From positions 1-53,620 of the IMG/VR virus record IMGVR_UViG_3300037851_000502: a DNA stretch of 53,620 bases. One strand, 5' to 3'. The position numbers were made by a program, and so were the translations under genes. Shown in pieces: positions 19,686-53,566 of this stretch (within the stretch, counting starts at the first letter, position 1; the number at the start of each line of letters is the position of its first letter). The notes below the pieces were generated by a model. That model searched no databases. It was given only the letters and a program-made list of their open reading frames with translations, and was not told the origin of the DNA. This stretch comes from a virus.

Positions 19686-20108
19686 ATGGCTTTATCCCCA
19701 GAAAGAGCACGAAAAATACTTACTCCATGGAAGCCGGGGCAGAGTGGAAATTTAAAAGGTCGCGGGCATGTAAAAAGTTTTAAAACATTAATCACCCCGT
19801 ACTTAAATTCACCCGCACCAGAAGCCCTCCGGAAAAAGGTAGAGAAACTTTTAGGGATTACACTTCCAGAAACTGTCACGGGACTGGAATTAATGGGCCT
19901 CCGAAATCTTTCTGATTCTATCGACTCTGGAAGAACCGATTCACAGAATATTCTTCTTGAGCGCACCGAAGGAAAAGTCACGAACCCAGTAGCATTCACC
20001 GGTACACCTCCTCCGGTGTTTAATCTTTCCGGGGACACTGCAAAAGAGGTTGTAGAAAAACTGTCCGGGTATTCAAAGACGAATGAAAACAACTCGGATA
20101 TTCAATGA
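19686..20108 (+). CDS. terS: Putative terminase small subunit
   Basis: Lies immediately upstream of and overlapping terL. The N-terminal WKPGQSGNLKGRG resembles the PGQSGNPxGRP motif of small-terminase-like phage proteins. Confidence 0.5.
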   Translation: MALSPERARKILTPWKPGQSGNLKGRGHVKSFKTLITPYLNSPAPEALRKKVEKLLGITLPETVTGLELMGLRNLSDSIDSGRTDSQNILLERTEGKVTNPVAFTGTPPPVFNLSGDTAKEVVEKLSGYSKTNENNSDIQ

Positions 20109-21249
20109 GAACACCCTCGCATTTTTTGACAAAACAAAAAGGCGGGCGCTCAACGAGGGCGGGACATCCTCTACAAAAACTTTTTCTATTCTCCAGCTTC
20201 TTGTCTTCCTCGCCGAATACGCAAAAGAACAAACGCTCATCTCCGTTGTTTCTGAATCCATGCCGCATCTCAAACGCGGTTGCATCCGTGATTTCCTGGT
20301 TATTCTCGGGGACCGGTATCAGGACGAGCTTTGGAATAAATCCGAGGCCCTGTATGAATTCCCAAATAACCTGGGGAAGATTGAATTTTTCTCAGCGGAC
20401 CAGGCGAGTAAGTTGCGCGGCGGTCGTCGGGACATTCTTTTTATCAATGAGTGCAATAATATTCCGTATGAAGCATACATGGAACTGGATATCCGAACAC
20501 GTCTTTTCACGTTTCTTGATTGGAACCCTGTCGGGGAATTTTGGGCGCATGATAAAAATCTTATCCATGATGCGGGGACTCAGTATATCCATAGCACATA
20601 TCTTGACGGAGTGGATGTTCTTCCGGCATCTGTCGTGGCGAATATCGAAGCTCAAAAAGATAAGGACCCGAATTGGTGGAATGTTTACGGTCTCGGCAAG
20701 CTGGGGAACGTCACGGGTATTGTCCATCCTTTTTTCATTCAGGAAGATGCTCTACCAGAGCATGAGCAGCAGAAAGAATTTTATGGCCTTGATTTCGGGT
20801 TTACGAATGATCCGACGTCGCTTATCCGGAACATTATCACCGGTGGGGATGAGCTTCATTCCGAGCAGCTCATATATGAGACAGGCCTTGACAATAACCA
20901 AATTGCAAAACGGATGGAGCAACTCGGGGTGGATAAATCGGCAGTTGTCTGGGGTGATTCGGCAGAACCTAAAAGTATTTCTGAAATCAGTAAGTACGGG
21001 TTTAATATCAACCCTGCCCCCAAGGGTAAAGACTCCATTACAAACGGCATACAGCTCGTGAACCAGCATCGGCAGTTCTGGACGAAGAACTCTGTTGATT
21101 GCATCAAGGAGCAGCGGAATTATCGGTATGAGGTCACGAAGGATGGAAAGTTGACCAACATACCAAGGGACCTCTTCAATCATTCGATGGATGCCCGGCG
21201 GTATGCAGTGATGGGGGAGAAACTTAAAGCAGGGATTCAAGTCTTTTAA
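20083..21249 (+). CDS. terL: Terminase large subunit (PBSX/Terminase_3-like)
   Basis: Walker A-like NEGGTSSTKT, Walker B DILFINECNN, nuclease region VVWGDSAEPKSISEISKYGF. Confidence 0.85.
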   Translation: MKTTRIFNENTLAFFDKTKRRALNEGGTSSTKTFSILQLLVFLAEYAKEQTLISVVSESMPHLKRGCIRDFLVILGDRYQDELWNKSEALYEFPNNLGKIEFFSADQASKLRGGRRDILFINECNNIPYEAYMELDIRTRLFTFLDWNPVGEFWAHDKNLIHDAGTQYIHSTYLDGVDVLPASVVANIEAQKDKDPNWWNVYGLGKLGNVTGIVHPFFIQEDALPEHEQQKEFYGLDFGFTNDPTSLIRNIITGGDELHSEQLIYETGLDNNQIAKRMEQLGVDKSAVVWGDSAEPKSISEISKYGFNINPAPKGKDSITNGIQLVNQHRQFWTKNSVDCIKEQRNYRYEVTKDGKLTNIPRDLFNHSMDARRYAVMGEKLKAGIQVF

Positions 21250-52166: not shown

Positions 52167-52979
52167 CTATGCTGACGTGCCGGTATTTCTGGCATGTGGC
52201 TTTAGCCCTTGCAGTATAGCGTTGTTGTGTGATGTTTTGCAAACTACCATATTATTCTTTTTTCGGCCCATTTTCTTGGCACAGGACGTGCCATGCCTCT
52301 CGTACCACTCCTGGGCATTGACCGTTTCCAACCCTTGCAATTCTGTCCATCCAATCGGCCACCCTTGCATCGCTTCGTAAACTTGGGGTGTCGGTTGCAA
52401 ATTGTGTGTGTTCCACAAAATCCACCCGATTCCGTGGTAGTGATCGCCAGGGCTTTTGCTCCACACATATTTTTCTTCCCATTTCGTTGGTGTAGGCCAC
52501 GATCCACAAGCGTTCTCTGAGGTGTCGTGCTCCAACATCGGCAGCGCTGAAAACGCCCCATTTTGCATTATACCCCATCTCGGCCAAGTCTCCGAGAACT
52601 CTTCCAAGCCCCCGAAAAGTGAGTGCTGGTGAGTTCTCCACAAGTGCAAATCCGGGTCGTATGTCCCCAATAATTCGCCGCATTTCGGCCCACAATCCGC
52701 TTCTTTCTCCGTCAAGTCCTGTTGCATTGTCGTTTGCAACGCTGATATCTTGGCACGGAAACCCACCAGAAACCACGTCAACAATTCCGCGCCAAGGCTT
52801 TCCGTCAAAAGTTCGCACGTCATCCCAAATCGGGAAAGGTTCGAGACTTCCGTCGTTTTGCCTTGCGACAAGAACATTGCGGGCGTGTTCGTCGTATTCG
52901 ACGGCGCAAACTGTTCGCCATCCGAGGAGCAACCCTCCGAGTATTCCGCCACCAGCGCCTGCGAAAAGAGCCAGCTCAT
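52167..52979 (-). CDS. 270-codon ORF in the +1 frame of the C5-methyltransferase gene (candidate overprinted gene)
   Basis: Its ATG lies 4 nt downstream of the MTase ATG (ATGAATG), behind the same SD. The product contains SRFGMTCELLTE, GFRAKISALQ, LWRTHQHSLFGG, SETWPRWGIMQNG, SWPTPT and EAMQGWPIGWTE, strings I recognise from a separate recurring protein family. Confidence 0.5.
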   Translation of the reverse strand: MSWLFSQALVAEYSEGCSSDGEQFAPSNTTNTPAMFLSQGKTTEVSNLSRFGMTCELLTESLGAELLTWFLVGFRAKISALQTTMQQDLTEKEADCGPKCGELLGTYDPDLHLWRTHQHSLFGGLEEFSETWPRWGIMQNGAFSALPMLEHDTSENACGSWPTPTKWEEKYVWSKSPGDHYHGIGWILWNTHNLQPTPQVYEAMQGWPIGWTELQGLETVNAQEWYERHGTSCAKKMGRKKNNMVVCKTSHNNAILQGLKPHARNTGTSA

Positions 52980-52983
52980 TCAT
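52252..52983 (-). CDS. DNA (cytosine-5) methyltransferase, compact (243 aa)
   Basis: Motif I LFAGAGGG, motif IV GGFPCQDIS, motif VI LVENSP, motif VIII RERLWIVA, motif X RVGNGQCPGV. SD AAGAGGAAGAA. Confidence 0.85.
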   Translation of the reverse strand: MNELALFAGAGGGILGGLLLGWRTVCAVEYDEHARNVLVARQNDGSLEPFPIWDDVRTFDGKPWRGIVDVVSGGFPCQDISVANDNATGLDGERSGLWAEMRRIIGDIRPGFALVENSPALTFRGLGRVLGDLAEMGYNAKWGVFSAADVGARHLRERLWIVAYTNEMGRKICVEQKPWRSLPRNRVDFVEHTQFATDTPSLRSDARVADWMDRIARVGNGQCPGVVREAWHVLCQENGPKKE

Positions 52984-53095
52984 TTCTTCCTCTTGTTTTT
53001 GTTGCCCAGGACGGGCAATTGTTTTTATGGGCCGAAAAACTATAATTCAAAAGTTTGCAAAATTTCATACAACGTCTGCCGCATTCGCTCGAAGT

Positions 53096-53566
53096 TTAGC
53101 GGCCACACTTAGTACAGCTTTGTCCAATTGGTACACCATGAGAACACTGGCCGCTAAATTTTGTGCTGCGGGTGTTGTGCAAAAGTTTTAACGCCTCCGC
53201 ACGTTTGAGCGCAATTATCCTGTTATCAATTAACACCTTCGCGTGACTTGCATATATAGCAGGAGAAAGATTATAGCACAAATCAAGATGGTGTTTCACT
53301 TCCTCCAGAAAATCTATTTCATCTGACGCGCTCATATAATTCTCCAGCGTTAAAACTTTTGCACAACGGCCCGGCAAACGCACGAAGCGCGGCCAGACTA
53401 CATTATTGCTTACCAGCGTTTTGTGCTTGGCCTGTTGTTTGACTGTTGGCAGCGACTCTACCGTTTTCTTTCCGCCGCCCATCACGAATGTCACATTGAT
53501 TTTCCTCATCCCAGAACTGGCCAGCCTGATCTCGCGGAGAGCACGGATTATCTTTGCGCTCCACAA
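53096..53566 (-). CDS. Hypothetical protein with C-terminal Cys cluster
   Basis: ORF whose 5' end lies in the terminal overlap. Ends ...CSHGVPIGQSCTKCGR. Alternative start MRKINV at 53509. Confidence 0.5.
   Translation of the reverse strand: MWSAKIIRALREIRLASSGMRKINVTFVMGGGKKTVESLPTVKQQAKHKTLVSNNVVWPRFVRLPGRCAKVLTLENYMSASDEIDFLEEVKHHLDLCYNLSPAIYASHAKVLIDNRIIALKRAEALKLLHNTRSTKFSGQCSHGVPIGQSCTKCGR

Follow-up and report, generated by a model that had tools for sequence, protein, structure and literature searches.

The contig examined here, IMGVR_UViG_3300037851_000502, is an IMG/VR virus record of 53,620 nt (the window, by which we mean this whole stretch of DNA), and at positions 52167-52983 on its minus strand it carries a C5 DNA methyltransferase gene that is covered almost from end to end by a second open reading frame (ORF). 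We put at roughly 70% the probability that the two superimposed ORFs, called frame A (alpha) and frame B (beta) below, encode the two chains of a heterodimeric C5 DNA methyltransferase made by dual initiation from one gene. Dual initiation had been listed first of three options in the earlier note on this DNA, and it is the one that the evidence favours. The two ORFs and their common Shine-Dalgarno (SD) region are as follows.

52252..52983, minus strand: frame A ORF (alpha), 243 amino acids (aa), with motifs I-VIII, a predicted disordered spacer and then motif X
52167..52979, minus strand: frame B ORF (beta), 270 aa, in the +1 frame relative to A
52984..52994, minus strand: SD region AAGAGGAAGAA, common to both starts and directly 5′ of the A start

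Read from the sequence, frame B begins at ATGAATGAGC, 4 nt downstream of A's ATG, overlaps A for 728 nt and extends 85 nt beyond the A stop, which agrees with the earlier description of a 270-codon ORF sharing its SD with A. The accompanying caveat that five of the six frames at this locus are open for more than 100 codons is likewise borne out by the ORF list. On the other hand, B codons had been said to end mostly in G, and this was too strong, G being found at the third position of 109 of the 270 codons (40%), a plurality.

The maintenance of frame B was followed in two independent samples spanning a GC content of 0.46-0.65. The viral set comprises 80 loci sampled by frame A only, and so unbiased for B, with counts taken across 89 loci; the genomic set comprises 76 loci from bacterial genomes and metagenome-assembled genomes, including Acinetobacter, Pseudomonas, Pantoea, Vibrio, Nitrosomonas, Verrucomicrobiota, Planctomycetota, Synechococcus, Treponema and Patescibacteria. 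Expected numbers of stops were obtained by permuting synonymous codons within each gene, so that the A protein and its codon usage were retained. Frame B of the viral set has 22 interior stops compared to 449 expected, and the +2 frame shows no depletion (1414 compared to 1173 expected). In the genomic set only 2 stops are found in frame B where 295 are expected, giving 24 against about 744 for both sets together (165 loci). Between A codon 2 and motif VIII frame B has 3 stops compared to 210 expected, and in the variable region (32-195 codons) frame A has none compared to 185 expected from B-synonymous shuffles, a figure that is partly built in since only loci with motif X in the A ORF were used. 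The second ORF is thereby confirmed as real, and chance falls far short of explaining it. The earlier note had named stops within frame B of close homologues as grounds for giving up the idea; B is open in about 95% of loci, and the idea stands.

The two frames are also tied to each other in position. Frame B lies in the +1 frame of A in 163 of 165 loci sampled by frame A, a few indel variants aside, and its start is an ATG at +4 in 66 of 77 distinct start contexts, within NTGAATGAG behind the SD. An SD-like GGAG, GAGG or AGGA stands 7-11 nt upstream of the A start in most homologues. The start codon of A in the sampled loci is ATG (36), GTG (21) or TTG (8), and since B keeps its ATG in 66 of 77 contexts, the alpha/beta ratio may be tuned by start-codon strength. 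At the other end, B terminates within a few tens of nucleotides of the A stop in all but a few of the 89 loci, usually about 20 nt or less from it, compared to the 85 nt by which B of the window runs past. A tblastn search with B returned 44 phage records, and the first six (Salmonella, Pseudomonas, Microcystis, Acinetobacter and Vibrio phages and an uncultured Caudoviricetes sp.) have both frames open throughout with MSW at +4 in 6/6. Gene callers chose frame A in loci L001, L002, L004 and L005, and frame B in L003, L006 and the contig of the window, where B is annotated as "hypothetical protein".

Sampling in the opposite direction gave the same picture. All 75 complete loci drawn by the B profile carry an A ORF of equal length with methyltransferase motifs in the -1 frame; no stand-alone B gene was found among these 75 loci and the phage records checked, and because of this B is taken never to occur alone. 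Both ORFs are thus open whether loci are sampled by A or by B, the co-conservation which the earlier note had wanted tested. The same note had recognised strings in B as belonging to a separate family of phage proteins. This is not upheld, in that every B-like sequence that could be placed lies in the +1 frame of an A-type gene (75/75 and the checked phage records), and the supposed family is this same overlapping ORF as called by gene finders. It is a large group: B has 3891 matches in a 90%-identity collection, with no Pfam domain in any of the top 120, and among the representatives of 50%-identity clusters 31,423 match its profile at E ≤ 1e-3 and 6138 do so at E ≤ 1e-30. A search with frame A gave at least 8000 matches at E ≤ 0.001.

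Selection acting on the two frames was measured in two ways. In a synonymous-codon test on 38 sequences sharing less than 70% amino-acid identity in A, the mean pairwise codon identity in conserved A columns is 0.526, compared to a null of 0.344 (standard deviation 0.003), and the unusual constraint on synonymous sites of A, which the earlier note had wanted tested, is present. Invariant codons include V115 GTG (31/31), N117 AAC (38/38), A134 GCC (29/29), G137 GGG (38/38), G207 GGG (32/32), A209 GCC (34/34), D213 GAC (32/32) and V226 GTG (27/27). Synonymous constraint also covers A codons 2-15 (N2 is AAT in 33/34 and E3 is GAG in 33/36) and codons 207-230, which overlie the B tail. The constrained codons spell conserved B residues, namely MSW, W.T.Q, TWP.WG and MGWP.GWT, and codons G74, P76, R156 and R158 are at the null, serving as internal controls for shared ancestry. 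The second test counted substitutions in 13 independent pairs of moderately related genes, A position 1 being the wobble position of B; the differences at A positions 1/2/3 were as follows.

Motifs I-VIII: 0.107/0.059/0.240, frame A coding, 12 of 12 pairs
Variable region after motif VIII: 0.389/0.165/0.121, frame B coding, 13 of 13 pairs
Last ~30 codons: 0.137/0.094/0.183, both frames constrained, n = 13

Both ORFs are maintained, and each frame is under purifying selection in regions complementary to those of the other. By stops, by synonymous sites and by substitution pattern alike, the locus is a same-strand overlapping gene under dual purifying selection.

Frame A contains most of a C5 methyltransferase, distributed in the following way.

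52945..52965, minus strand: motif I, FAGAGGG, S-adenosylmethionine (AdoMet) binding; invariant columns in alignments A1 and A3
52750..52764, minus strand: motif IV, GFPCQ, with the catalytic Cys77; invariant in A1 and A3
52627..52638, minus strand: motif VI, ENSP; E116 and N117 invariant in A1 and A3
52495..52518, minus strand: motif VIII, RERLWIVA; R156 and R158 invariant in A1 and A3
52327..52482, minus strand: spacer, residues 168-219, free of stops and otherwise unconstrained in frame A
52312..52332, minus strand: motif X, VGNGQCP, followed by a C-terminal helix; from sequence, alignments A1 and A3 and the AlphaFold2 (AF2) model

Against Pfam PF00145, frame A gives an E-value of 1.1e-27 over residues 4-178 only, corresponding to profile positions 4-169 of 324, and against phrog_363 an E-value of 1e-53 over residues 1-230. 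With TIGR00675 it reaches 74.5 bits, under the cut-off of 100.65, and it is not classed as a canonical ten-motif monomer. The AF2 model built from deep alignments (predicted template modelling score, pTM, 0.70) has residues 1-167 folded as a Rossmann core and a helix at 224-236 belonging to motif X, with the predicted local distance difference test (pLDDT) below 50 at residues 168-219. Foldseek aligns this model to M.HhaI and M.HaeIII at E ~5e-12 over only about 178 columns, that is, the large domain. Motif X of A is under selection in its own right, because N220 is retained while the overlapping B residue alternates between T and M. The earlier note had called A a complete enzyme with motifs I, IV, VI, VIII and X. 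The motifs are all there, and completeness is not, since A, as judged from sequence and model, has motifs I-VIII and X with neither motif IX nor a folded target-recognition region.

Frame B carries, in part, what A lacks. Its segments are listed below.

52935..52979, minus strand: N-terminal conserved segment MSWLFSQALVAEYSE; M1, S2, W3, S6, L9 and V10 near-invariant in alignment A2
52557..52658, minus strand: conserved core DPD..W.T.Q.SL..FSETWPRWG.M.NG, overlying A motifs VI-VIII
52485..52499, minus strand: first Pro-Thr-Pro (PTP) module, WPTPT, read as a putative target-recognition element
52386..52397, minus strand: second PTP module, QPTP, from motif content
52344..52379, minus strand: motif IX-like segment YEAMQGWPIGWT, from the hhalign match to Moonbeam gp69 and motif counts
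52290..52343, minus strand: conserved tail ELQGLETVNAQEWYERHG, overlying A motif X; consensus L.PLE.DKF..W...HG
52167..52289, minus strand: C-terminal extension, not conserved and specific to the window

The earlier note had put A's motif X and B's GWPIGWT on nearly the same nucleotides. In fact they are 11 nt apart, at 52312-52332 and 52344-52379, and the part of B that overlies motif X is its tail (ELQGLE...HG). When motifs were counted downstream of motif VIII in 161 distinct genes, P[TS]P occurred 214 times in frame B, 5 times in frame A and 2 times in the +2 frame, at 0-4 per gene and with more of them where the variable region is longer (r = 0.64). The MGWPxxW-type motif occurs in frame B in 123 of these genes and in frame A in 1/161. 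Furthermore, B matches phrog_1008 ("DNA methyltransferase") at E 1.4e-15, and AF2 gives it a pLDDT of 83-89 at residues 161-220, where A is predicted to be disordered. Hairpins of moderate confidence are modelled at residues 101-120, and residues 1-100 mostly have low pLDDT. No homologues of residues 1-100 were found outside the overlap, and the C-terminal third is methyltransferase sequence that is main-frame elsewhere.

This last point comes from actinophage single-chain enzymes, namely those of the Mycobacterium phages Moonbeam (gp69) and Maddy2 and gp88 of Gordonia phage CheeseTouch, which have a homologous catalytic core and share LPTP..D..G modules and an EWMMGWPxGWVT motif, followed by IGNGV. 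In Moonbeam gp69 and Maddy2 the LLPTP modules, EWMMGWPAGWVT and IGNGVVP all lie in frame with motifs I-VIII. The motif IX-like segment is main-frame in the actinophage enzymes, as are most PTP modules in Moonbeam and Maddy2; CheeseTouch has its PTP modules in the +1 frame and motifs IX and X in the main frame. The clearly homologous segments NQSPSPGAAVRPSLD and GGHL.RSG.R.HELLLPGVA stand in the main frame of Maddy2 or Moonbeam, and in the +1 frame of CheeseTouch. With segments changing frame in this way, the piece carried in the second frame differs between lineages. The actinophage +1 ORF is shorter than B and has an internal Met start. Moreover, the B core in the form YDPDT.SW...SETWP..G...LPTP is found in the +1 frame over motifs VI-VIII in the three actinophage genes and in Mycobacterium phage Spikelee, and genes of Bacteroides, Sulfitobacter and Synechococcus phages show the core in the +1 frame too.

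By hhalign, B profile positions 195-214 match residues 311-330 of Moonbeam gp69, in its main frame, with 94.5% probability (E 7.8e-8), and the earlier note's comparison of WPTP and MGWPIGWT with methyltransferase motifs was right. The match to Maddy2 has 84% probability, and that to CheeseTouch gp88 is weak (E 0.0015). On gp88, PF00145 runs in one stretch through the B-equivalent motif to motif X (profile position 316/324), and phmmer of gp88 against PDB aligned only motifs I-VIII. The proposal that B was overprinted on an ancestral A does not fit these relatives, where the C-terminal PTP modules and motif IX belong to the main frame of a single chain.

The mechanism that we favour starts from one mRNA with one ribosome-binding site, on which ribosomes would begin at one of two ATGs, that of A or, 4 nt downstream, that of B. 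Alpha would form the catalytic large domain (motifs I-VIII) and the motif X helix, its spacer having only to stay open. Beta would supply the small DNA-recognition domain that alpha lacks, made of the PTP modules and the motif IX-like segment, and its PTP modules would occupy the variable region, the place of the target-recognition domain in single-chain enzymes. The N-terminal part of beta, which overlies the catalytic motifs of alpha, plausibly holds the chains together, and the two chains would assemble into one active enzyme, both by analogy with M.EcoHK31I.

M.EcoHK31I (YGGCCR), a published precedent that the earlier note had overlooked, is a natural heterodimeric C5 methyltransferase (Lee, Kam & Shaw, 1995, as reported in PMC2836561 and PMC3404938). 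Its alpha chain has motifs I-VIII, X and the target-recognition domain, its beta chain has motif IX, and beta (176 aa) is encoded wholly in another frame inside the alpha gene (309 aa) (PMC2836561, PMC3404938). Silent removal of the beta start codons abolishes activity, which beta in trans restores, and N-terminal deletions of beta progressively weaken its association with alpha (PMC2836561, PMC3404938). The gene in the window resembles it in having an alpha with motifs I-VIII plus X, together with a beta in another frame with a motif IX-like segment. However, beta here spans the whole alpha gene, starting 4 nt downstream, unlike the nested beta of M.EcoHK31I, and alpha here has a spacer, modelled as disordered, in place of the recognition domain, with the PTP modules in beta. 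M.EcoHK31I is moreover part of a restriction-modification system, whereas the gene here is an orphan in a temperate phage.

Several points weigh against this reading. That both chains are translated, that they associate and that activity needs them jointly is what we infer, and M.EcoHK31I was compared by its description rather than by its sequence. B, as profile or sequence, has no match in Pfam, NCBIfam or PDB sequences, its profile has none to E. coli Dcm by hhalign, and its model has none in PDB by Foldseek; matches in BFVD are of low TM only, some named methylase, and are unusable. The AF2 model of whole B is poor (pLDDT 60.6, pTM 0.33). Because these direct searches are empty, the correspondence of the B motif EWLMGWPxGWT to motif IX is indirect, being suggested through the actinophage relatives by the gp69 match and by the PF00145 alignment of gp88 running through the equivalent position. 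We take the PTP modules (hydrophobic-PTP-x-A-x-D-..-G-G) to be variants of the TL motif of target-recognition domains, which in M.HhaI is ITLSAYGGG; this is our reading of the sequences and not a search result. Finally, hand-built A-B-A mosaics scored lower against PF00145 than A alone, and thus lend no support to a hidden canonical single chain.

Among the other explanations, the one that survives best, which we still regard as unlikely, is that both ORFs are translated and beta is functionally separate, for example an anti-defence or regulatory protein, overprinted and not a subunit. It can draw on the part of B up to about residue 160, which shows no detectable relation to methyltransferases, on the emptiness of the B profile in Pfam, NCBIfam and PDB, and on reviews which describe overprinted viral proteins as often unrelated in function. 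It has to account for a B that holds PTP modules and a motif which are main-frame in single-chain relatives and which are exactly the parts missing from A, for the fact that B is never found without A, and for the precedent of M.EcoHK31I, a true heterodimer.

Even less probable, to our mind, is a single chain made by programmed frameshifting, in which A would be read through motif VIII, with a +1 shift to B and possibly a -1 shift back for motif X. Such a mosaic would fit the way in which selection passes from A to B and then to both along the gene, and also the complementary confidence of the two AF2 models, and the order of motifs along the DNA (I-VIII, PTP, IX, X) is canonical. But a mosaic leaves the first 160 codons of B and the A spacer needlessly open (3 compared to 210 and 0 compared to 185 stops), and the B core, the best-conserved part, is upstream of every site at which a shift could occur. 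Since RERLWIVA of A and WPTP of B are written on shared bases, one chain cannot contain both. B has its own conserved ATG behind the SD, A codons 2-15 are constrained to keep MSWLFSQALV, and both frames are open from end to end, which is not how a frameshift gene is recognised; no slippery site or in-frame stop was noticed at the junctions, where no systematic search was made.

Scarcely credible, lastly, is that frame B is an untranslated by-product of methyltransferase conservation called only by automatic predictors. In its favour, a highly conserved A necessarily imposes some similarity on the +1 frame, long ORFs occur in further frames at this locus, and gene finders choose A or B inconsistently. 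The stop depletion against synonymous shuffles in two independent samples, the wobble pattern of the variable region, which is that of B and not of A, and the site-specific synonymous constraint beside unconstrained control columns all speak against it.

To place the alpha/beta heterodimer among known enzymes, M.AquI (CYCGRG) is a natural C5 enzyme of two polypeptides split in the variable region, the larger having motifs I-VIII and the smaller IX-X, and M.SssI and M.HhaI, engineered as fragments, show complementation if the cut lies in the variable region (PMC3404938). Unlike M.AquI, motif X here stays with alpha. The two genes of M.AquI follow one another with a short overlap, instead of being superimposed. 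The multispecific C5 enzymes of Bacillus phages (SPR and phi3T type) are single chains with tandem recognition modules between motifs VIII and IX, and differ in being single chains from the alpha/beta gene here; the principle of tandem recognition modules is noted in an EcoSal review. In dcm-vsr of E. coli, as here, a second gene starts in another frame at a C5 methyltransferase gene, but the two share just about 20 nt, at the 3′ end, and Vsr is an endonuclease of DNA repair instead of a subunit.

The exceptions to the two-frame arrangement make up about 5% of loci and look like pseudogenes, sequencing errors or natural re-partitions. In L060:1501-2790, frame A has a stop at codon 202, followed by a stretch in the +2 frame with an HNH-like motif, ILCRTCHKNEH, past which motif X continues in the former frame B and the B tail in +2, which suggests insertion of a mobile HNH element. 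In L019 and L088, indels fuse the N-terminal part of A in frame to the motif IX segment and the B tail, with motif X in +2; these variants may be pseudogenes, assembly errors or alternative enzyme partitions. B of L056 is split at codon 88 by a TGA followed by an ATG (ESEPA*MANDQECG), within a stretch that lacks constraint and is disordered in the model. The break lies near the first Met of the actinophage beta ORFs (MNATSGP), which suggests that a shorter beta can suffice. One stop falls within the B core of L087. In E. coli, a detectable copy is present in 4 of 5426 complete genomes, as prophage, and that of the E. coli PCP07014 prophage (L096, 1200-1961) has an internal stop and is called a pseudogene by PGAP.

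The surroundings of the gene were also inspected. The contig is that of a temperate phage or prophage, encoding integrase, terminase, portal and endolysin, and no restriction gene adjoins the frame A/B locus in the window; in this setting, a temperate phage without a neighbouring endonuclease, the enzyme probably serves as an orphan methylase of protective or regulatory function. Directly upstream of the methyltransferase gene lies an ORF of 156 aa (53096-53566, minus strand) with no Pfam or PHROG match, whose C-terminal Cys-rich segment CSHGVPIGQSCTKCGR is possibly a zinc ribbon. At the opposite end of the contig, 260-1033 on the minus strand encodes a different small C5-methyltransferase-like ORF of 257 aa with motifs LYAGIGGN and SSPPCP; its PF00145 match (E 3e-7) is confined to residues 34-115, its match to phrog_363 is partial, and no same-strand ORF of at least 100 aa overlaps it. 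Another long overlapping frame of the window, a 318-codon ORF at 20105-21061 (plus strand) lying +1 to the gene for the large terminase subunit (20083-21249), is probably due to chance: an equally long open run arises in 1% of synonymous shuffles, tblastn against phages gave no match, and the translation is rich in S, R, L and F and not protein-like. In other phages the dual-coded gene has methylase neighbours. In Salmonella phage S9-5 (L002:907-1500) an adenine methylase gene abuts it with a 4-nt overlap, and in Sulfitobacter phage phiGT1 (L009:2014-2742) an N6/N4 methylase lies two genes downstream; both phages carry methylase clusters.

A two-chain design with beta in another frame is known from one enzyme, M.EcoHK31I (1995). 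What appears to be new here is the complete overlap with tandem starts, the placing of recognition-type modules and motif IX in beta with none in alpha, a partition between the chains that shifts among lineages, and the conservation of the arrangement across a very large cross-phylum family of phages and prophages for which Pfam and NCBIfam have no model. No prior description of such a phage family with superimposed ORFs was found in the literature searched, REBASE and most subscription literature lying outside that search. Whether the whole phage and prophage family consists of obligate alpha/beta heterodimers from superimposed ORFs, with frameshifting indels moving the modules and motif IX between chains and tandem PTP modules setting, and perhaps multiplying, target specificity, is to us an evenly balanced question. 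Under that extension of the heterodimer reading, modules and motif IX would belong to beta in this gene, in part to alpha in CheeseTouch and for the most part to alpha in Moonbeam.

Annotation pipelines treat a dual-coded locus as a single gene. Because gene finders call one ORF and neither Pfam nor NCBIfam models beta, tens of thousands of entries are annotated for one half only, and if the family-wide reading is true, half of each enzyme sits in the databases as "hypothetical protein". Recoding the annotated methyltransferase ORF on cloning could silently destroy beta. The locus is also an unusually clean and data-rich example of dual coding over the full length of a gene, with the dominant frame changing from one part to the next, of use for testing methods of overlapping-gene detection and for asking how such genes arise. 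Should the family-wide reading be correct, this would be one of the conserved same-strand dual-coding genes of prokaryotic viruses with the greatest length and the widest distribution. The family would also provide a compact methyltransferase split by nature, in which one chain recognises and the other catalyses, of relevance to the evasion of restriction by phages and to engineered split methyltransferases, for which M.EcoHK31I has already been used.

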